Assembly: GCA_000004695.1 (NCBI GenBank) | Contig: CM000155.2 | Span: 640,001-704,000, forward strand | From: Dictyostelium discoideum | Taxonomy: Eukaryota | Length of the DNA stretch: 64,000 nt | Direction of reading: 5' to 3' | Part shown: positions 3,919 to 16,982 of the stretch, one piece after another | Numbering within the stretch: the stretch's first letter is position 1 | Layout of the letters: every line of letters starts with the position of its first letter | Translations under genes and position numbers: made by a program | The notes under the pieces: model-generated | What the model saw: the letters and a program-made list of their open reading frames with translations, nothing else | Told to the model about the DNA's origin: nothing | Database searches by the model: none

Positions 3919-4277
3919 ATGAAATTTTTAATTTCTTTAATTTTAATTTTATCAATCGTATATAATAATTGTAATGCCTTTTCTTTAAACAAAAACTCTA
4001 ATAAAAAAGTATTGGACTATGATATTTGTTTCCCATCTGGTTCAACTGGAATCAATGGATTCAGAACTAATATACTTGGCGTTGGTTATAATTCATTATA
4101 TCCAAATGGTGATGGTGCAATTTCATCATACATTGAAGAAAACCAAATCGATGTTGATTTTGAAAACCAAAGATTATTTGCAAATTACTTTATGAAATTA
4201 GATGGAAATACTGAAAATATCTTTGGAAGTTTTTGGGCATTTTCATCAAATGTAATGTATCTCTCAAATAATTTAAT

Positions 4278-4335
<58 letters not shown>

Positions 4336-4794
4336 TTAATACTAATAAAATCTTTTTATTTTTTTATATTTAATTTAAAATTTATATATAAATTATTATA
4401 GAAAACTGAATATTACTATATAGTTGATAATGATGGTGTTTATAATTGTTATTCATCAGAAATGGATTATGAAATTTCAGCAAATTTCGAATTAGATTAT
4501 GTCTCTGAAAATCAAATCGGTGCAACCCCATGTGAAGTTTATCATTTAAAATCAAATTTATTACAAAATACTACTATTCAAAGTATTATTGTTGACAAAT
4601 CCCAATGTGCATTAACAGCTTCAATTCTTACCATGGTTTCTCCAGCTAGTACAGGAGTTACATTGGTAAACTATTTCAACTATAATCCAAGCTCAAATCC
4701 AATTAATTATGAATTACCGGTAGAATGTGGAAATCCAGTCCCAATTAATCAAGTTATCAGACCAAGATCATTAAACTTATTTAAACAACATTAA
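3919..4794 (+). CDS. Secreted Cys-containing protein (signal peptide), paralogue A; exons 3919..4251 and 4402..4794
   Basis: N-terminal hydrophobic signal MKFLISLILILSIVYNNCNA. A GTAATG donor follows codon N at 4251. The intron contains a poly-A run (the false KKKK stretch in the ORF track). Acceptor ATAG at 4401 joins the 4462 ORF in frame (KTEYYYIVDNDG...). Same exon structure and intron position as the paralogue at 45440..46289. Confidence 0.7.
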
Positions 4795-5329: not shown

Positions 5330-6436
5330 TTAAGGTGAAGTTGTAGTAGTGGTAGTGGTAGTTGTAGTCGTTGTAGTGTTATTATTATTATTATTAATTG
5401 AAAGTATAACCTGTGGTTTATAACTAAATAAATAATCAATTATTGATTGTCTTGATTCAGGTGGTGATTGAATTAATTTATAGATAATAAAATGTTGAAA
5501 TAATAATTTTGTTCTAAAGGTTGGTGATAAATTTTGAAGGAGAGCAGCTATCAATTCATTTTTAATGATTGTTGAAGAAGGTGAAGAAGAAGGTAACTGT
5601 TTATGATTATTAATGAAATCAAAGAGCACAGAGGAGATACCAGAGATTAAAGATGTATGAACGTTCATTTGAGATTTATCTAAACGACAACTTTCCAATA
5701 CGTCTTCATGTAAATCAACCAATACTCTACTTGAATTTCTATTTGCAATATCACCTAAAACCGATGGTGGTAAATCTTTGATTACCATTGAGATCTCTTT
5801 TTTAAAATTCTCTGATTCCTTTTGATCATTTTCATTAACGCTAGTAAAACTAATTAAAACTGCGTAAAAACTGATTAAATTCTCTTTTGATTGAATTGAA
5901 TAAACATTTTTAAAATGTTCAATGATAGTGTTTACAATTGAGAATTTAATTTTTTCATTATCAACTTTTGATAGAATACTTTGCATTTCTTTGAATTGTT
6001 TCTCTAATGTATCTGATTCCTCTAATGATAGATTATGAATTATATGACTATATATTAAATCTTCATCAATTTCACCTTCTTCATTTAAATAATCTTTAAT
6101 CTTTTTTTTATAATCTTTTAAACTTATTGTTGGTTTTTGATCTATATTTTTAAATGAATTTAATGATTGTTGTTGTTGTGTTGGAGATTGTGGTTGCTGC
6201 TGTTGTTGAGTTGGTCTTTGTTGTGAAGTTGTTGGATTATTACTATTATTATTGCTATTGCTATTGCTATTATTATTATTATTATTATTATTATTTATAG
6301 TTATAGAATGTTGTGGTTGTTGTTGTTGTTCTTCTTGTCCATCTTGTTGTTCAATTTGATTTTGTAGTTGTCTTGGATAAAAGAAAGATGCAATCCATGT
6401 GTACCATGACATTGACCATTGATATAATCCTTCCAT
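5330..6436 (-). CDS. Hypothetical low-complexity (poly-N/Q/T) protein, 368 aa
   Basis: Long ORF with coding-like composition and Dictyostelium-type homopolymer amino-acid runs. The C-terminal half is non-repetitive (IEHFKNVYSIQSKENLISFYAVLISF...). No recognisable domain. Confidence 0.55.
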   Translation of the reverse strand: MEGLYQWSMSWYTWIASFFYPRQLQNQIEQQDGQEEQQQQPQHSITINNNNNNNNNSNSNSNNNSNNPTTSQQRPTQQQQQPQSPTQQQQSLNSFKNIDQKPTISLKDYKKKIKDYLNEEGEIDEDLIYSHIIHNLSLEESDTLEKQFKEMQSILSKVDNEKIKFSIVNTIIEHFKNVYSIQSKENLISFYAVLISFTSVNENDQKESENFKKEISMVIKDLPPSVLGDIANRNSSRVLVDLHEDVLESCRLDKSQMNVHTSLISGISSVLFDFINNHKQLPSSSPSSTIIKNELIAALLQNLSPTFRTKLLFQHFIIYKLIQSPPESRQSIIDYLFSYKPQVILSINNNNNNTTTTTTTTTTTTTSP

Positions 6437-6776: not shown

Positions 6777-7968
6777 TCATTCAACTATGAATTGTAAAGT
6801 ATGTTTTGGATCAGCTTGTTTAAAATTTTTGTTTTTTGTTTTTCTTTTTTCAGGTGGTTTCAAAGCATTTTGATTTGCTTTTGGTCTGGAAATTAAATAA
6901 TGACAAATATTATATAAAGTAATTGCATCACCTGGTACATTCGAATTATTTGATAATGATATTAAATTTGTAGAATCATCTTCAATATTACTTTTTAATT
7001 CTTTTCTCTTTGAAGAATCTAAATAAGATTTTATACCACCACCAACATGTTTTACCATCCTTAACCATTGAATTTGTTTTTCGATACTATTTTATTAATA
7101 ATAAAAAAAAAAAAAAAAAAAAAAAATGTTAATATATTATTAATAAAATAAAATGAAATAAAAATTAAATAAATAAATATTTTACCTAGAATAAGTTTCT
7201 TCAGGAGAAATAAACCAATTATCTCTAGTTTTTTTAGAATTAATTGAGGAGATCAATTTCTCTTTAAAGATTTTAAAATATTTTGAAATTTTTTTATTTA
7301 TTCTTTCTTGACCTTCTTTTGAATTATAGTATGTTAATCTCTCCAAATCATTATGTCTTTCATATTTTTTAATTTTATTTGTTGTATATTTATTTATGAA
7401 TAATTTTTGAATTCTTTTAAAATCTGAAATATCAATAAAACTATTTGAATTTACAATATTTTGAAAAATTATAAAATGTAATGCCATTGGTTCTTTTTTA
7501 ATTACTGCATTCACTGAATCGAATAAAACACTATTTCTACTATATAAGGTTGGTATACCATTCTTATATTTTTCATCAATTTTAATTTTAATTGTTAATT
7601 TTCTAGGTGGTAAAATTAATTTTTGTTTCTTTTTATTATTATTATTATTTTCATCATCATTATTGAAATTATTACTTTGAAATTTTTCAAATAAATTTTC
7701 AGAATCACTTGAATCTATATCTGATTCTGAAATTTCTGATGTTGAATCTGAAGAAAGAGTTGGTGATGAAATATTATCAATTTTTCTTTTTTTATCATTA
7801 TTTATATTATTATTATTAATTTCATCAACTTCGTTAATACTATTATTGTTAATATTATTATTGTTATTATTATTATTATTAATATTATTATTAATATTAT
7901 TATCATTATTATTATTATCATCATCTTTATTATTGTTATTAATATTATTAATATTATTATTAATATTT

Positions 7969-8045
<77 letters not shown>

Positions 8046-8267
8046 ATTATTATTATTATTATTATTAAAATTATTATTTAAATTAAATTCTTTAATTAAT
8101 TTTGTTTCCAATTGTGAACTACCACCATATAATATTGCAATTGGGGAATAACAATTATCCACTATTCCTTTATTAAGTAATAGTTTATTATTTTCATTTT
8201 TGATATGAGAACTAATAATAGTATTTTTTAAGATACTACTATTCCTATTTATAATATGTTTAACCAT
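6777..8267 (-). CDS. Hypothetical nuclear-like low-complexity protein, spliced; exons 8267..7186 and 7086..6777
   Basis: The stop of ORF 7182..8267 overlaps a GTAAAA donor (TCTAG|GTAAAAT). A 99 bp AT-rich intron (7087-7185) ends in AATAG. Exon 2 continues in frame (S-IEKQIQWLR-MVKHVGGG...) straight into ORF 6777..7058. Exon 1 has a long poly-N tract plus acidic Ser-rich and KKRK segments. Confidence 0.6.
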
Positions 8268-8951: not shown

Positions 8952-11900
8952 TTAAACATTAGAAAGTTTTAAACTAAACCAAATAAAAGAATCAAGAGAT
9001 AATCTAAAAATTTGTTGTTTAATTGAATCAGTTCTTTCATAATAAGCTAAAAGGTAATCACCATGAAGTGTTATATTTAAAGCGGCGATTGATGAAGGTG
9101 GAATATCACCAGTACAAACGAATTGATTCCATTCAAAAGTTTCTAAATTTAGGATATGAATTTGATTGAGTAATCTTGCTTTATTGAACCAACCACCAAT
9201 AACAATCAAAGAATTATTCCAAAGTATACTACTATGACCAACCATTGGTAATGGTGGAATACCTTTACATTCGATTTCAACCCAACCATTTTTATTTGTA
9301 GTTGGAACTGTGAATTTAAATCTATGGAAAGAATCTTCAATTGAAGAGATAACAAAAGTTAATGTATCATTGAAAACTGTAACCGATGGACCATCAGGGA
9401 AATCGATTTTATTTTTCAATTCTTTCTTCAAGAGGAATGGTAAATTAATTTCCTTTGGAGCATTCTCACCAATGAATACTTGATAAATCTTTTTAGATTG
9501 GATTTTAATGATTTCACGATCGTCAGGTGTTTGATTTGGTAAAGATTTGAAAGTTTTAATAGCTTCATAAAACATTAAATTCTCTTCATTGAATTCTGAT
9601 TGCATGTGAGTATAAAATGCTTTATAGGTGGTTGACTGTTTATTATTCAATACAACCATTAATTTATCCTCGAATAGCATGCTTGAAAGATTTAATGCAA
9701 ACACTTTTGAATGTGGTTTCGATGAATTATTCCAACCACCGAAATGGATGATTTTATCTTGATAAATGATTGAACCACCAGATGGTAATGGATGGTCAGA
9801 GTAAATGTTATTATCCGACGCTAAACTCTTATAACTATGTTCCTTTGATTCAATCTCTTTCTTTATCGTATAGAGTTGTGATATTATTTTAGATGGTGAT
9901 GGACGATTCAATGGTTCACCTGACCAACAATCTTTAATTAAATCTGCAAATGATGGTAAACAATCTAATGGAATCGATGGACGTTGACCACTAATAACAA
10001 TATTTGAGAATCTATCATGATCTTGGAATGCTATTGATCTAGTTAACAATTCATATAAAATAATACCAAATGAATAGACATCACTATTTTCATGATAATT
10101 TAATTTTTGTAATACTTCTGGTGAATGATATGATTTTGGTGTTGTACTAGTTGGAAATAGTGACGGTAAAAATGATGATTGTGAAAAATCTATAATTTTT
10201 GCATTTACAAATGGTTCAATTTCAAGACCATTGCCACTTGACTGATGGTCATTTGATTTCTCTAAAATTATACCAGAACTTGTTAAATTTGTTAATAGGA
10301 AAGGTGGAGAATGTGAATTTAATTTATCCATTGCACGAGCTATATCCAATGCAATCTTTAATTTAATATTCCATGGAATTTCAGGATGCTTTTGTCTGTC
10401 TTGAATATACTCTGATAGGGTTGTGCTACCTTTACTACCGAATGTCGGATTCTCTGTTATGATTGCGATTGGGTTCATTGAAATACCAATTATCGATAAA
10501 ACATTTGAATGACGGAAATTATATAATGACAATGCTTCATGTCTAAAACTTGATAGAATACGAGCACAATTATTTTGGAAATCTGCGCCCAACAATGGAG
10601 CATTGAATACTTTAATATTTACAAACTGTTTACCATACATTCCCATCATTGATTGTGTTGATGTACCATTTTCATTTTGATTAGAATGATCTGGTAAAAC
10701 TTCAATCTCTCTATAATCAATTTCTTTAATAAAATGACAAATTGAAAATTGATCTAATAATAGTGATCGAATTGGTACCAAAAATGAATCATCTCTATAA
10801 ATTTCAACTTTTCTTTCTTTTTCTTTTTCTTTATCTTTATCTTTTTCTTTTTCTTTTTCTTTTTCTTTATTTTGTTTTGCTAATTCTTTCAAATCTTTTT
10901 TAGATAAACTATTATTATTATCATTATTATTTGATTGAATTAGGTTTTTAGAATCTTTTCTTGAAATCTTTGGATTTGATCTAGATGAAGCAATTGGTGA
11001 ACTTGTATCATTTGAACTATTATTGTTATTTGGTTTATATTGACAATAAATACCTAATTCACCTTTAAATATTTGTGCTTCACATTCTTCCAATTTAAAT
11101 AAATGAGGTGTAACGATTTTCTTTTCAATACAATGACTACATGGTATAAAAGTTTTAAATGATACTTTATACCATTTTGAAACTAAAGATTCGAAAATAC
11201 TATAAACTTGACTTGATAAGGTTGATGGTCTAATAAATCTTATTGTAATTTCAATTGTATTACTATCATGATCAACATTTACTAAAATACGTTCTTCACG
11301 GAATTGTTGTTGTAATGTGTTGTTGGAAGATCCTGATGCTAATGATTGGAGAGTTGTTGCTGATGTTGTTGTTGTTGAGTTTGCTGTTGATGATGATGAT
11401 GATGATGATGTTGTTGACATTGATGCTATCTCTGGTACTAAAATTGCTAAATCCTTCCAACATTTATAAAGATGAGCATGTTGCATTAGTCTACTTAATA
11501 ATCTACCAAATAAACCATTTGGAATTACATCTAATGAGAATCTTCTTGAAAATTGATGAATTTCAGGTGACTCTGGAAAAGCTTCCCAAATACCTGGTAA
11601 ATCAATGATTGGTATCATTGATGAAATATTATTCAAATTTAATGCATTACTTAATGAAGATGATGAAGATGATGAATTTGAACTAATTGAACAATTACCA
11701 TTGATTGATAGTTGTGGTGGTGGTGCTAATAATGATGAAACCAATGCCCAACCAACACGAGCATTAAATGAACTTGAACGACCATTTCTAACTTTTTGAT
11801 TTGATGTAAAACTTGATAAACTACTTGTATTATTTAAATTAACACCAAAATAAGAATTACTGCGATTTGCTTCATGAATACTCATTGATCTTGATCCTGA

Positions 11901-14900
11901 TCTACCACGACCTACATTATTGCCATTGCTATTATTATTATTATTATTATTAACTTCTAATGAATAAATATTAATTGCTAAATCATTACTTTCTAATAAT
12001 GATAAAAATAATGAAAAGAATCTTTCAGGTACATAATATTTTGAATTTGTACCCCAAACATAACGTAAAACTCTATGTGGTAAAATACCAGTGATTGTTG
12101 AATCATGTGATGCATCATTTGCTTCTTCAGCACTAACACTAACATTGAATGGTAAATTTTGAGGATTAAAACAAACCAATGAAGCTATTGCCTTTGCTAT
12201 CCAAATTGGATTCAAAGCAATCATTTCAGTTTTTTGAGGTGTTGAACCTGGTTCCATACGAATGAATTGTTCAAACAATGCAATTGAACCCAATGAATTG
12301 AATAACGATTTCAATTGAGTGAAATGTGGTTCATTATGTAACTCCATTGTACGTGCCATTTGTTGTAGTGTCTTTTTGGTAACCAATGGTGGTGACATTA
12401 AATTTGATTCCTCTTTAAGATAATCCTCTAAAAACATAAAGGAGGCAGGATAGGTTTGTTTTAGTATTGGATTCTTTGCAATCATTTGTTTAATATCTCT
12501 TCTAAGTTTTCTAATTCCATCAGCATCTGATTTCAATGTTGAAACTGCATGAAAAACCAAATTAAGTGTTGGAAATAATTGTTTATATTTTAAAGATAAA
12601 CAATCGAATACTTTATCAACTTGTTTCTTACTATTGGATGAAATCTCATCCAAATGAGTACCAATGATAATGATTGTTGCTTTTTTATCATAATTATTAA
12701 TACCATGTAAATAAGATGTTATCTTTTGTTCATTTGATTTACTTGAACCAAATTTAGATAAATTGAAACAAACTGTATAAATTATATTTGGTACAAAGAA
12801 AACATGACTAATATCATTTTGCATACCTTCAAATTCCCAAAGATGAATTGTAATAGTTTTCTTTTTCTTACCATCTGGACCATCAACATTAATTGGACAT
12901 TGCCAATCTTGAATATCTAAAATATTTGTTTTACTATTACCTGAATTATTTGAATTATTACTGTTTAAATTATTTAATGATGGTAAATTACTTGAAGAAG
13001 ATGAAAAACTTGATTTTGGTAATTTTTTTAAACATTTTATTAAATTTGATTTACCAGTTGATTTATCACCCAACATAATGATTCTAGTACGATAACAAGG
13101 TACGTTGGTTCTCATGGTTTCAGAAAAGAATGAGAAAATACCTTCTTTACCTTTTTGAATATATTTCTCTGGTATATTATCTTTTAATGGTTTATTACCA
13201 GTTAATTCTAATGAATTTAATTTCTTTAAAGCTACAATACCAGGTGGTAAACGTGAGATATTATTATTTGTTAATCTAAGTTCAATGAGTGATTGCATTC
13301 TATGAATTGCAGAACTAATCGATTGTAATTGATTATTATCTAAATAAAGTTTCTTTAAATTTGTTAATAATAAAAGTTGGGGTGGTAATGACTGGATTTG
13401 GTTTCCATTTAAATTGAGTTCAGTCAATGATGTTAATTTTTGGATATCAGAAGTTAAATGAGAAATTTGATTATCTGCCAATGTCAATACTTGTAATTCC
13501 ACTAAATTAATTATACCCTCTGGTATGGAGGTTAAATGATTCTTTCTTAAATCCAGTGACCTTAATTTAGTGGATGTGCATATCTTTGGAATACCATTAT
13601 CGTCCAAATCGTTATTACTAACACGTAACACCTCCAATGTCGGGATTTGAAAGATATCAATTGGTAATTTAGTGAGATAGTTATTTGAAATATTTAAAGT
13701 TTTCAATTTTAACCAAGTATACAATGGTGGTAATACCACCAATCTATTACTACTCAATGTCACATTCTCAAGATTACTTAATCTCGTTCCCAAGAAATCT
13801 GCCATCTCTGATGAAATCTCGGTTAAATTATTCTCTTCTATACAAATGGTTCTCAATGATGTTAATCTTGCAAGATCACCTGGTAATAATTTAAATTTAT
13901 TTCTATTCAAATTTAATTCTTGTAAATCTTTAAGTTGTTTAATTTCGTTTGGTAAACTTTCCAACTCTAATGAAAACATATCCAACTTTTGTGGTATAAT
14001 TCTATTCAATTGTGATATTGATTTAGTTACTGAATTTATATATGCATATATTAATTTACATGTTGAAGGTGACTGAAATGAAAATGTTATAACTGTTTTA
14101 GTATCACTACTACAATAAACTGTAAAATTAGGTAATACTTTTAATGATGATGATAGTGATGTTGACGATATTGATGGTGTTGATGATGACGATGATGATG
14201 CTGATGACGAATTTGATATTGATGATGATGACGATGATGATGATGATTGTGGTGGTGTATATAATACAATTTTTAAAATACTGCTAAATAAAATAGCTAA
14301 ATCAGGTTCACCATGATCAATATTAACCTTTGGTCTCCAAACAATTTGTTTATGAAATAACCATAAATTACCAACTGATGATTGATGTTGACTCTTTTGT
14401 GTTGATGTTAATACCTCTTCAATATAAAGAATTTGAGCATCATCTGTATTCATACGTTCTTCAGGTGATTGGAATAAAATATCAGCTTGTTGAATAAACA
14501 TTGTTACAATATCTTTAATTGTCTTTAAATGTGATTCACTAATCTCTTTACTTTGAGCAATTGTTCCAATAGTTGGTCTTAATATAAATTTATGAAATCT
14601 TTCAACTAATAATTCCAATGTAACATCATTAAAATTTGTATATACCATAATATCTTTTAAATATTTCATTAATCTACATAAAATTGATTTATTTGGATTA
14701 TTCATTTTCCTAATCATTAAATGTAATAAAGTTTCTATAAAAAAATAAAAATAAATTTATTAATATATTATTAATATTATTATTATTAAATTGTTTAATA
14801 TATTGATGATATATTAATATTTACCAGTTTGATAATAATTTAAAAGAGTTTCATAAAATTCAACACTTATAATTGGTTCAGGTAAACGATTAAAAAATTC

Positions 14901-15984
14901 AATTAAAATTTCTGAAACAACATGAACATTACATTTTTTAAGTGATACTTCAATACCTTGATCATATTGATTACAAATATTTTCAACTTCTAATTTAATT
15001 GATTTTTGTGATAAATATTGATGTGGTGATGTATTTGTATTTGTTGTTGTTGTAGTAGTAGGCTGTGGTTGTTGTTGTTGTTGTAGTTGATTTATAATAT
15101 TTGGTGATGAATTACCAGATGAACCAGATGAAGAAGATGATGATAATGATGATGATAAATTTGGAGATGTTGGTACACTAATTGTTGGTATGGTTGTATT
15201 TGCAGCAGTTGAGATTGGACTAATACTTGAGGCTAAATTACTAGTACTTGTATTATAATCACCATAAAACAATCTATTTGTTGATAATGCACTACTTGAT
15301 TCTAAGATTGTAAAGATTGAATTTAAAATTGAGGGTATTTGATTACCACTTTCGTTTGGGTAACGTAATATTACACGTAATGGTATACCGAATATACCTT
15401 CGAATGGTACAACTTGAACACTGTTTAAAGAGTTTGGTGATGTGTGACCACTAATTGTACCACTACCACTTGATATAGAGGAGGAGGTTGATTGCTGGTA
15501 TGGTGATGATGGTGTTTTATATTGTTCTTTACTTTGACTAACTAATTTACTCATTCTCTCTTTTGAAAGACTCATTTTACCTAAAAATTGCATAACTTTT
15601 TCACCGGCACCTGCTTGTTTAACACCTGATGATGACGATGATACACCTGTTGAATTCATTAATGGTGACCTATTTTGACTGCTAACTGCAGATGCTGATG
15701 TTTTCTTATTATGATTACCTCTTGGATAACCCATAGTTGGTGATGATGATAATGGCATTTGTGAATCAGAGTTTAGTCCTGTTAAATGTGGTGGTTGTGG
15801 TGATGTTGATTGAATAATTGGCGATGTAACACCACTTGATTGATTACTACTGCTACCATGAGTATTACTATTATTATTATTATTACCACCATTATCAATA
15901 CCACTACCTGACATTGATAATGAACCACTGGTACCATTTGAAGGTGAATGATTACCATTCATTGGATGTTGTGGTTGTTTATTG

Positions 15985-16015
<31 letters not shown>

Positions 16016-16982
16016 AACCTGCTACTGAATTATGAAAATTACCATGGGTTGAATGTTTATTTAGTGCTGGCATTGTTGGTGAACTTAAATAATTATTATT
16101 ATTATTATTGTTGTTGTTGTTGTTACCATTACGTTGTTGTTGTTGTAATTGTGATAAAATATTTAAAGTTTGAGTTGAAGCTGTACCAGATGGTGAAGTA
16201 CTATTATAGATACCACTACCACTATTGTTTAAAGAGATTGAAGGTGAAACATCACCAGCAGCACTTGTACTACTAATTTTAATTGGTGATAATGGTGGTT
16301 TATTACCACCAGAATTCCTTTTACCATTATTATTTCTAGAGAGTGTTGGTGATGGTGATATAAATAATGGTACCTCTGGTAATGATGAAATTAAATCTTT
16401 TTTTTGCGCTTTAATATTTTCTTTCTCTTCTGTTGTTAATGGTAATTCTTCATTAATTAATGTTGCAAAGGTTTCATTATCTTTATCTTTATCTTGTTTG
16501 TTGTTATTATTAGTTTGTAAATTTGGTGGTGTTGATGTTGGTGATGTTGGTACTGGCGGAATTGGTATATTGCTTGCCAATAATAATGATTTCAATTGTT
16601 GTGCATTAAATGTATTACCACCTGATAATCTAGTACCACTTGGTGATGTTATATATGTTGGTGAGGCTGATATTGTTGGTGATGATGTAGTAGTTGTTGC
16701 AACTGGTGACATTGCAGTTGTAGTTGTTGTTGTTGTTGTTGTTGTTATAATTGTTGGTGGAGGTGGTGATGATGATGTATTTATTGTTTGTGTTGGTAGT
16801 GGTGGTGGTGGTGATAATGTATCATTCTCTAATAAATTTTGTTGTGGTGAGCTTGGTGGAATTGATTTATTATCATCTGCACCATTTACACTATAATTTA
16901 ATGATGCACTACCAATTGATGATGTTATAATAGAATCTGGTGAAACTTGAATGATTTCATCATCATCCAATAAACCTGACAT
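8952..16982 (-). CDS. Roco-family protein: RhoGAP - LRR - Roc GTPase - COR - (pseudo)kinase - Kelch/RGS/Kelch; exons 16982..14825 and 14734..8952
   Basis: The 3-prime ORF has LRRs (LKDLQELNLNRNKFKLLP...) and a Roc P-loop (IIMLGDKSTGKSNLIKCL). The kinase domain has VNIK, DFS, SPE and DVYSFGIILYEL. An RGS domain (FEDKLMVVL...EENLMFYEAIKTF...IYQVFIGENAP) and Kelch repeats (HFGGWNN, VIGGWFN) follow. The 5-prime ORF (14814..16982) has a RhoGAP-like end (CNVHVVSEILIEFFNRLPEPIISVEFY). It terminates at a GTAAAT donor (ACTG|GTAAAT), followed by a 90 bp AT-rich intron (14735-14824) and a TTTTATAG acceptor. Reading continues in frame E-TLLHL-MIRKMNNPNK, the start of ORF 8952..14717. Total about 2640 aa. 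Confidence 0.8.

Follow-up and report, generated by a model that had tools for sequence, protein, structure and literature searches.

The roco10 locus of Dictyostelium discoideum raises the question of whether the kinase-like domain of its product can still carry out phosphotransfer and, if it cannot, what such a domain may contribute to a large multidomain Roco protein. A preliminary description of the locus predicted a Roco pseudokinase lacking the catalytic Asp. We placed the kinase motifs by profile, pairwise and multiple alignment, predicted the fold of the domain, and compared it and its neighbouring domains with orthologues and with known systems. Positions below are those of the window, the whole 64,000-nucleotide stretch of D. 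discoideum DNA that was analysed.

Structure of the roco10 gene and domain organization of Roco10

The gene (DDB0201665; UniProt Q6XHA6) was delimited from its open reading frames, a splice junction read from the sequence and an exact protein match.

8952–16982, minus strand: roco10 gene
16982–14825, minus strand: exon 1
14824–14735, minus strand: intron, gt..ag
14734–8952, minus strand: exon 2, stop codon included

The spliced product of 2646 amino acids is identical to XP_630003.1/UniRef100_Q6XHA6 of D. discoideum AX4, for which the UniProt title is "Probable inactive serine/threonine-protein kinase roco10". Pfam searches of the spliced protein gave the domain order RhoGAP–LRR–Roc–COR–kinase–RGS–Kelch. 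Roco10 belongs to the Roco family by its Roc domain and adjoining C-terminal COR region, and to the LRRK/Dictyostelium Roco subgroup by its leucine-rich repeats N-terminal of Roc and its TKL-type kinase domain C-terminal of COR.

14565–15392, minus strand: RhoGAP-like domain (Pfam RhoGAP, 44.6 bits on the spliced protein)
13179–13985, minus strand: leucine-rich repeats (Pfam LRR_8, 86–93 bits; LRR_4; LRR_14)
12525–13094, minus strand: Roc domain, residues 1267–1456 (phmmer to LRRK2 Roc; Pfam Roc, 25–26 bits)
11031–12452, minus strand: COR region, comprising COR-A, a low-complexity linker and COR-B (Pfam)
9858–10721, minus strand: kinase-fold domain, predicted pseudokinase, residues 2058–2345 (Pfam PK_Tyr_Ser-Thr, 86 bits; Pkinase, 58 bits)
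9732–9791, minus strand: extra Kelch-like blade upstream of the RGS domain
9312–9626, minus strand: RGS domain amid Kelch-type repeats (Pfam RGS, 45 bits)
8955–9299, minus strand: C-terminal Kelch repeats (Pfam Kelch_KLHDC2_KLHL20_DRC7, 65–66 bits; Kelch_1; Kelch_6)

COR-B scored 39.5–40.9 bits (cut-off 27), and COR-A, found in the expected position, 24.4–26.6 bits, under its cut-off of 35.3.

Active-site motifs of the kinase domain

The motif register was set by HMMER/phmmer and by a 12-sequence MAFFT alignment containing Roco4 and other TKL kinases, and the two were concordant. The Pfam kinase models align to Roco10 only over profile positions 43–263, and phmmer against the Roco4 kinase (4f0f/4f1m; E ~2e-23) pairs SHSPPFLLTNLTSSGIIL with NQNPPIVHRDLRSPNIFL.

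10659–10694, minus strand: PDHSNQNENGTS, enlarged glycine-poor β1–β2 loop at the GxGxxG position (MAFFT, AlphaFold)
10626–10646, minus strand: MGMYGKQ, a β2-turn-β3 hairpin (AlphaFold secondary structure, MAFFT)
10611–10613, minus strand: β3 Lys2094 (VNIK), kept (invariant MAFFT column K50; β3 strand in the model)
10536–10538, minus strand: αC Glu2119 (FRHEAL), kept (invariant MAFFT column E75)
10272–10298, minus strand: catalytic-loop equivalent LLTNLTSSG (phmmer and MAFFT alignments)
10287–10295, minus strand: LTN in place of HRD (alignment to Roco4 and 10 other kinases)
10287–10289, minus strand: Asn2202 at the position of the catalytic-base Asp, PKA Asp166 (alignment)
10272–10274, minus strand: Gly2207 at the position of the Mg-binding catalytic-loop Asn, Asn171 (alignment)
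10182–10190, minus strand: DFS replacing DFG, the metal-binding Asp2235 kept and the Gly lost (alignment)
10116–10124, minus strand: SPE, kept (alignment)

A kinase domain is classed as a pseudokinase by sequence if at least one of the VAIK Lys, the HRD Asp and the DFG Asp is missing (PMC4718504, PMC1420674). Compared with an active eukaryotic protein kinase, Roco10 has the β3 Lys, the αC Glu and the DFG Asp (column D191, invariant in the MAFFT alignment), whereas the HRD Asp, Asn171 and the GxGxxG loop are all absent; with its fold kept and its HRD Asp missing, it falls under this definition. The His and Arg of HRD are also gone (LTN/ITN), and the catalytic Asp is kept in 63 of 66 Roc-plus-kinase relatives. 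Since no Asp occupies the catalytic-base position in the HMMER, pairwise or MAFFT alignments, the domain is a predicted pseudokinase, as had been proposed from the replacement of HRD by LTN. The alignments likewise bear out the earlier assignments of a Gly at the catalytic-loop Asn and of a retained VAIK Lys, αC Glu, DF(S) and (S)PE. The motif itself had been placed slightly off, with the interval given for it (10300–10420) encoding LSEYIQ...KLNSHSPP and ending 5–13 nt short of the LTN codons.

Predicted fold and the glycine-rich loop

The AlphaFold model of the kinase domain (pLDDT 81.6, pTM 0.82) shows the canonical pattern of β1–β5, αC and C-lobe, and Foldseek matches it best to the Roco4 kinase (4f1m). 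The predicted structure thus keeps the complete bilobal kinase fold; the model carries no information on ligand binding. Strands β1, β2 and β3 are placed at model residues 19–22, 35–42 and 45–52, which, together with the MAFFT alignment, rules out MGMYGKQ as the glycine-rich loop and makes it the hairpin between β2 and β3. The preliminary description was right that the glycine-rich loop is degenerate but had read it from MGMYGKQ, whereas the segment at this position is the glycine-poor PDHSNQNENGTS, which falls below pLDDT 50 at model residues 27–32 and is not conserved among orthologues.

Conservation of the pseudokinase configuration

The orthologue set comprised three proteins, from D. discoideum, Heterostelium album and one metagenome contig (L002). 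The Asn at the catalytic base, the β3 Lys, the αC Glu, DxS and the Roc motif WEFEG are invariant across all three, so that the dictyostelid comparison suggested earlier, made here with H. album and the metagenomic sequence, finds both the catalytic-base Asn and WEFEG unchanged. T-N-L of the catalytic-loop equivalent is likewise preserved in all three, and the two other orthologues have DLS and DFS at the DFG position. The Asn171 position varies. The canonical Asn occurs in H. album and a Ser in the metagenomic orthologue, and D. discoideum alone among the three has Gly.

The kinase domains of D. discoideum and H. album share 67.5% identity (75% in the C-lobe), compared with 55–59% for Roc, RGS and Kelch, 75% for COR-A and 78% for the leucine-rich repeats. 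Identity of the kinase domain to the two orthologues is 67–71%, with long invariant stretches. Few domains of Roco10 are as well conserved as the pseudokinase, and this pattern of sequence identity points to purifying selection on it. Chance, an assembly artefact, a sequencing error or a pseudogene were excluded as sources of the variant motifs by the exact match to the reference protein, the intact open reading frame and the conservation; the motifs are not artefactual, because they match the reference exactly and recur in two orthologues.

The initial homologue search returned the H. album protein alone and missed D. discoideum Roco10 itself, so the absence of D. purpureum and Cavenderia orthologues from its output is uninformative. 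A profile search with the two orthologues gave no match at E<=1e-20, a query with the H. album LRR–Roc–COR region gave output dominated by generic LRR proteins, and a search of 1.84 billion representatives gave no additional cluster above 32% identity. Of two metagenome matches, L002 is a genuine orthologue, and L003, an unrelated kinase with 29% identity, was left out.

The Roc GTPase-like domain

The Roc domain, which scores just under the 27-bit Pfam cut-off, was aligned to LRRK2 and to more than 60 other Roc domains.

13047–13070, minus strand: P-loop GDKSTGKS (alignment)
12930–12989, minus strand: 20-aa Asn/Ser-rich insert, specific to D. discoideum (three-way alignment)
12927–12929, minus strand: switch I Thr1322 (alignment)
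12822–12839, minus strand: G3/switch II WEFEGM (phmmer to LRRK2 Roc)
12834–12836, minus strand: Glu1353 replacing the Asp of G3 DxxG (phmmer)
12648–12659, minus strand: G4 THLD (alignment)

The Ras-like G1, G2 Thr and G4 elements are all present, and G3 departs from the canonical DxxG and catalytic Gln, reading ExxG followed by Met1357. phmmer against LRRK2 Roc (2zej; E ~1e-9) pairs hlWEFEGmq with nvWDFAGRe, in agreement with the switch II reading of WEFEG given previously; this alignment spans switch I and G3–G5, with the P-loop appearing only as a weak separate segment. DxxG is found in 59 of 66 tabulated Roc domains and ExxG in two, and the residue after the motif is Gln in 55 of 62 and another residue in seven. 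The three orthologues have Met, Leu and Met at this position. Since the P-loop, switch I Thr and G4 are kept, Roc of Roco10 has probably retained guanine nucleotide binding. Given the ExxG and the replacement of the following Gln by Met, changes in its handling of Mg2+ and in its intrinsic rate of hydrolysis are probable.

The RhoGAP-like domain

The intron and a low-complexity insert of some 80 amino acids both interrupt this domain.

15264–15266, minus strand: Tyr573 at the arginine-finger position (phmmer to p50RhoGAP, LFY vs IFR)

The arginine finger of catalytic RhoGAP domains (GIFR in p50RhoGAP) is absent from D. discoideum Roco10, in a register taken from alignments to p50RhoGAP and ARHGAP11A that are both weak (E ~1e-3). 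The H. album orthologue has Arg at the same position (LFR); the family as a whole has therefore not lost the finger. The best solved match is the RhoGAP-like domain of OCRL1 (PDB 2QV2/3QIS), which aligns to the C-terminal two-thirds of the Roco10 domain (E 3e-9). The OCRL1 domain is catalytically inactive and has no arginine finger. OCRL1 and D. discoideum Roco10 (Tyr573) are alike in this absence, but H. album Roco10 has the Arg.

Comparison with known systems and published work

The predicted inactivity of Roco10 is already known. The 2006 kinome analysis of Goldberg et al. stated that roco10 "appears catalytically inert", suggested scaffolding or regulatory roles, and recorded in Table S2 "LTNLTSSG ... 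lacks G52, D166 and N171" together with "partial kd" (PMC1420674). The pseudokinase finding is therefore sound but not new, having been published in 2006 and being present in the database name. What the present work adds is the orthologue conservation, the changes at the Roc G3 motif and its Gln, and the RhoGAP finger observation, all of which were absent from the sources consulted. No biochemical assay of Roco10 kinase activity or of ATP or GTP binding was found in the literature searched. Insertion mutants of roco10 showed reduced movement in a pilot screen that did not resolve individual domains (PMC8386026).

The closest relative by both sequence and structure is Roco4, which, like human LRRK2 and LRRK1, has the LRR–Roc–COR–kinase core in common with Roco10. 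Roco4 and the LRRKs are active kinases with HRD, N, DFG and GxGxxG, whereas Roco10 has LTN, G and DFS and no glycine loop; the Roc G3 is ExxG-M in Roco10 and DxxG-Q/R in Roco4 and the LRRKs, with Arg following DxxG in human LRRK2 (WDFAGR); and the accessory domains are RhoGAP-like, RGS and Kelch in Roco10, in contrast to WD40 and ARM/ANK in Roco4 and LRRK2.

The active site also resembles those of HER3/ErbB3 and the JAK JH2 domains, in which Asp166 is also replaced by Asn while the β3 Lys, the DFG Asp and the fold are intact. HER3 and JAK JH2 bind nucleotide despite this Asn and act allosterically or as scaffolds in larger signalling assemblies (PMC4718504). They belong to the TK group, however, whereas Roco10 belongs to the Roco branch of TKL; they keep most of the glycine loop and Asn171, whereas Roco10 has no glycine loop and the D. 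discoideum protein also lacks Asn171; and their nucleotide binding has been demonstrated, whereas that of Roco10 is putative. For the Roc domain, G3E GTPases (UreG, HypB, MeaB, CobW/COG0523) likewise have Glu in the Walker B/G3 motif, which is compatible with GTP hydrolysis (PMC2770081). Because these enzymes work with Glu, ExxG alone is no argument for a dead or special GTPase; they are of the SIMIBI class and unrelated to the Ras-like Roc, the likeness being one of a single residue and not a family assignment.

Alternative explanations

We consider it probable that the kinase-like domain of Roco10 is a conserved, non-catalytic pseudokinase that serves as a conformational or scaffold module and may bind nucleotide. 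A low-activity or atypical kinase, capable of slow phosphotransfer such as a regulatory autophosphorylation, would be in keeping with the retention of Lys2094, Glu2119 and Asp2235 in all three orthologues, with a catalytic-base Asn that is itself invariant and shows no drift, with the nucleotide binding of HER3 and JAK2 JH2, and with the weak activity that has been argued for other domains having Asn at the Asp166 position. We regard this as unlikely in view of how much else of the active site has gone: GxGxxG is replaced by a longer, glycine-poor and non-conserved loop, HRD has lost its His and Arg as well, two of the three orthologues have Gly or Ser in place of the Mg-binding Asn, the DFG Gly is lost, and the kinome analysis rated the domain as inactive (PMC1420674). 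Far less probable again is a decaying, functionless remnant arising from neutral drift, a strain-specific mutation or a sequencing error. It is true that every other ROCO family member in the 2006 kinome tree has a shorter branch than Roco10 (1.15; PMC1420674), and that the Pfam kinase models match Roco10 only from position 43 onward, but the reading frame is intact and identical to the reference, the fold is confidently predicted, and the domain exceeds Roc, RGS and Kelch in identity; by these comparisons the conservation data already contradict the remnant reading.

The same question arises for the Roc domain, which, if also a pseudoenzyme that fails to bind Mg-GTP or is locked in the GTP state, would make Roco10 a constitutive scaffold with no switch. 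The rarity of ExxG and of a non-Gln residue after it, the persistence of both G3 changes in the orthologues and the Pfam score under the gathering threshold are consistent with this. We nevertheless find it doubtful, since the P-loop GxxxxGKS, switch I Thr, G4 THxD and the G3 Gly are intact and conserved, G3E-family GTPases hydrolyse GTP with Glu (PMC2770081), human LRRK2 itself departs from Gln after DxxG, and one Roco relative (P0067) pairs ExxG with a normal HRD kinase.

Proposed role of the domain and significance

Taking the conserved pseudokinase as the preferred reading, the kinase domain of Roco10 would not support efficient phosphotransfer, and the β3 Lys, αC Glu and DFG Asp, which serve to hold ATP and are retained, may still permit nucleotide binding. 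The domain could then act as a conformational or docking module coupled to the neighbouring Roc–COR unit and position the RhoGAP-like, RGS and Kelch modules, so that Roco10 would act by regulating the actin cytoskeleton and cell motility and not by phosphorylating substrates. A more speculative extension, which we put forward tentatively, is that Roco10 of D. discoideum is "enzyme-silent", combining the pseudokinase with an altered Roc and a fingerless RhoGAP and acting in motility through nucleotide-dependent conformation and scaffolding alone.

The genome annotation is unchanged by these results, as UniProt and the 2006 kinome have for two decades recorded the gene together with its architecture and the prediction of inactivity. 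Of the eleven Roco proteins in D. discoideum, Roco10 is the only pseudokinase, and its "dead" kinase configuration is conserved between distant dictyostelids. Together with the motility phenotype and the non-canonical Roc and RhoGAP-like domains, this suggests that Roco10 may offer a simple system in which to examine how a Roco/LRRK scaffold operates without phosphotransfer. If the "enzyme-silent" proposal were correct, Roco10 would offer a natural model, amenable to genetics, for the debated functions of LRRK2 that do not depend on its kinase.

Organization of the roco10 gene

The Roco kinase sequence lies in a two-exon gene on the minus strand.

8952..14717, minus strand: main ORF (5.8 kb, 1921 aa), containing the interval 10300..10420 of the preliminary description
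14814..16982, minus strand: second, upstream ORF (722 aa), terminating within the RhoGAP domain
5330..6436 (minus), 7182..8267 (minus) and 3919..4794 (plus): flanking ORFs downstream of roco10 (110-368 aa)

A 90-nt AT-rich gap with a gt donor and an ag acceptor, read from the sequence, separates the two roco10 ORFs, and splicing of 16982..14825 to 14734..8952 gives an in-frame protein of 2646 aa. By exact-sequence look-up in a public collection, this protein is XP_630003.1 / EAL61591.1 / UniRef100_Q6XHA6, "Probable inactive serine/threonine-protein kinase roco10" of Dictyostelium discoideum AX4. The RGS domain (9312..9626, minus strand) is flanked by a Kelch-like blade, PLPSGGSIIYQDKIIHFGGW (9732..9791), and by the C-terminal Kelch repeats, and looks as if it were inserted into the Kelch propeller; the arrangement is kept in both orthologues described below.

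Table. Pfam domains of Roco10, with identity between D. discoideum and Heterostelium album
RhoGAP: residues 663-772, the start of the domain lying further upstream
LRR: between RhoGAP and Roc; 78%
Roc: residues 1315-1415 (25 bits, slightly below cut-off); 55.5%
COR-A and COR-B: between Roc and kinase; COR-A 75%
Kinase: residues 2113-2341; 67.5% (C-lobe 75%)
RGS: residues 2418-2525; 57%
Kelch repeats: C-terminal; 59%

The kinase domain

In a phmmer search of all PDB sequences, the Roco10 kinase matches the Roco4 kinase of D. discoideum best (E about 2e-23). Roco10 SHSPPFLLTNLTSSGIIL pairs with Roco4 NQNPPIVHRDLRSPNIFL, and IIDFSQS with VADFGLS; the same register was reproduced by MAFFT for the Roco10 kinase with ten other TKL kinases and one Roco kinase (12 sequences).

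10287..10295, minus strand: LTN, the HRD equivalent, with Asn2202 at the catalytic-base position

Both alignments bear out the reading from sequence alone that LTN replaces HRD, with Asn at the catalytic-base position, and that Gly (Gly2207) occupies the position of the conserved catalytic-loop Asn; DFS stands in place of DFG. The interval to which these motifs had been assigned, 10300..10420, was misplaced: it encodes LSEYIQ...SHSPP and stops a few bases short of LTN. The residues described as retained are indeed present, in columns invariant across the whole MAFFT alignment, namely β3 Lys2094 (VNIK), αC Glu2119, the DFG Asp2235 and the P-E of (S)PE, together with the αF Asp and the late Arg. 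An AlphaFold model from the 12-sequence alignment was confident (pLDDT 81.6, pTM 0.82) and had Roco4 kinase structures as its top structural matches, which indicates that the fold is intact. The glycine-rich loop is degenerate, as described, but MGMYGKQ is not that loop, since model and alignment agree in placing it in the β2-turn-β3 hairpin; the GxGxxG counterpart is PDHSNQNENGTS, longer than normal, with one Gly and modelled at low confidence.

Conservation among orthologues and in the family

The sole close relative found in protein searches is P0001, a deposited protein of H. album PN500 (54-58% identity). The H. album orthologue (L001 6266..13447, on GL290985.1) is annotated as two genes, coding for 1036 aa and 1056 aa, the latter of which begins at an internal Met in Roc and loses part of Roc/COR to splicing. 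A continuous ORF of 1417 aa (L001:9194..13447) at this locus indicates that the deposited models are wrong (split and mis-spliced), so the lack of Roc G1-G3 in the deposited protein is a model error, and both LRR and Roc belong to the true orthologue. A metagenome scan gave a third, near-complete orthologue with LTN, DFS and WEFEGM, ORF 7..4773 of contig Ga0256900_1000869 (L002), 73% identical over the kinase-to-C-terminus query and presumably derived from an unsampled dictyostelid.

Table. Motifs in D. discoideum, H. album and L002, in that order
HRD equivalent: LTN; ITN; LTN
Catalytic-loop Asn: G; N; S
DFG equivalent: DFS; DLS; DFS
Roc G3: WEFEG; WEFEG; WEFEG
Residue after Roc G3: M; L; M

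In three-way alignments, all three sequences share the catalytic-loop T-N-L, the β3 Lys and the αC Glu, Asn thus occupying the catalytic-base position in H. album and L002 as well, and the Gly-loop segment varies with no conservation. The domain-by-domain identities place the pseudokinase among the most constrained parts of Roco10. Such constraint rules out a remnant in decay and points to a non-catalytic function for which the fold and specific pocket residues are needed.

When 1.84 billion representatives were searched exhaustively by HMMER with a Roc-COR-kinase query, no match beyond the two orthologues was closer than 32% identity. Among the best 150 matches, the catalytic Asp is kept in 63 of 66 Roc-plus-kinase proteins and DxxG in 59 of 66 aligned Roc domains; ExxG occurs in two, Roco10 and P0067 (GVWEFSGQE), the kinase of which has a normal HRD. 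Gln follows DxxG in 55 of 62, the residue being Met in Roco10. By these counts, both the lost catalytic Asp and ExxG are rare in the family. Two other Roc-plus-kinase proteins, P0079 and P0112, lack the catalytic Asp (HSA, HKS), and P0065 has an NxxG Roc domain; such losses arose independently elsewhere among Roco proteins.

The Roc domain

The Roc domain pairs with that of human LRRK2 (phmmer against PDB, E about 1e-9).

Table. Roc motifs of Roco10 and LRRK2 in the phmmer alignment
P-loop: rtriimlGdkstGKS; RMKLMIVGNTGSGKT
Switch I: sKTnilDIqDW; sATVGIDVKDW
G3: hlWEFEGmq; nvWDFAGRe
G4: iiiGTHLDe; ilvGTHLDv

This alignment confirms the ExxG proposed for G3 (Glu1353); the other guanine-nucleotide motifs are all present.

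12822..12824, minus strand: Met1357, the residue after the G3 Gly (Gln-to-Met)
12930..12989, minus strand: 20-aa Asn/Ser-rich insert, NLPSLNNLNSNNSNNSGNSK, between the P-loop helix and switch I

The Gln-to-Met/Leu change is a second conserved switch II departure, absent from the preliminary description. The insert is found only in D. discoideum among the three sequences compared and resembles the low-complexity expansions typical of Dictyostelium, here within a folded domain. A Walker-B Glu is the defining feature of the P-loop GTPases of the G3E family (UreG, HypB, MeaB, COG0523), and these enzymes hydrolyse GTP (PMC2770081), so Glu in this motif is not disabling in itself. LRRK2 carries Arg after DxxG. 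On these grounds, a fully dead Roc is only a minority possibility.

The RhoGAP-like domain

14565..15392, minus strand: RhoGAP-like domain
15264..15266, minus strand: Tyr573, arginine-finger position
about 14979..15254, minus strand: Ser/Gln/Thr-rich low-complexity insert (~80 aa), directly after the finger motif

Roco10 STNRLFYGDYNT pairs with p50RhoGAP TTEGIFRRSANT, and the R-to-A mutant entry 2NGR has GIFARSANT at the same position; these weak phmmer alignments (E about 1e-3) suggest that Tyr573 takes the arginine-finger position, with LFY in Roco10 against IFR/LFR of p50RhoGAP and ARHGAP11A. In the H. album orthologue an Arg remains at this position (LFREPEN). In D. discoideum, two further conserved residues, the Lys and Arg of the LKxFLReLPEP helix, are altered as well (LIEFFNRLPEP). 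The Pfam match covers profile positions 28-145 only; besides the insert, the intron (14735..14824) interrupts the domain a second time. For the rest of the domain the best PDB match is the OCRL1 RhoGAP-like domain (E 3e-9), which is catalytically inactive. The D. discoideum domain may be a non-catalytic GAP-like module.

Discussion

The Roco10 kinase has an intact fold, lacks the catalytic base, and retains conserved ATP-anchoring residues, which supports its description as a pseudokinase. The feature was known and annotated before, and its finding here is an independent, correct rediscovery of a 2006 annotation: the protein listed by Goldberg et al. (PMC1420674) starts MSGLLDDDEIIQVSPDS, identical to exon 1, their alignment figure places the motifs in the same register against Roco4-11, and the UniProt name bears the same prediction. 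No mention of the Roc ExxG was found in the literature covered, van Egmond & van Haastert 2010 lying outside it. What is new is modest: the three-orthologue conservation, the Roc Gln-to-Met, the Tyr in the RhoGAP-like domain and the correction to the register of the Gly loop.

Among kinases predicted to be inactive in this way, Goldberg et al. regarded scaffolding and regulatory functions as likely (PMC1420674). The kinase-like domain would be inefficient at substrate phosphorylation and could act as a conformational or docking module within the Roc-COR-kinase core, perhaps with nucleotide as a stabiliser. In mechanism, its nearest precedents are HER3 and the JAK JH2 domains, which share Asn at Asp166 with Roco10, bind nucleotide and act allosterically (PMC4718504). 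Unlike these, Roco10 no longer has the Gly loop, and the D. discoideum protein lacks Asn171 as well, which makes canonical Mg-ATP binding less certain.

Growth-phase motility was reduced in two independent REMI insertion strains of roco10, which had been chosen from a cytoskeleton proteomics list (PMC8386026). This phenotype is in keeping with the presence of RhoGAP-like, RGS and Kelch modules, which point to regulation of small GTPases, heterotrimeric G proteins and actin. If the Tyr573 finding holds, three enzyme-like modules of D. discoideum Roco10 would carry non-canonical catalytic residues.
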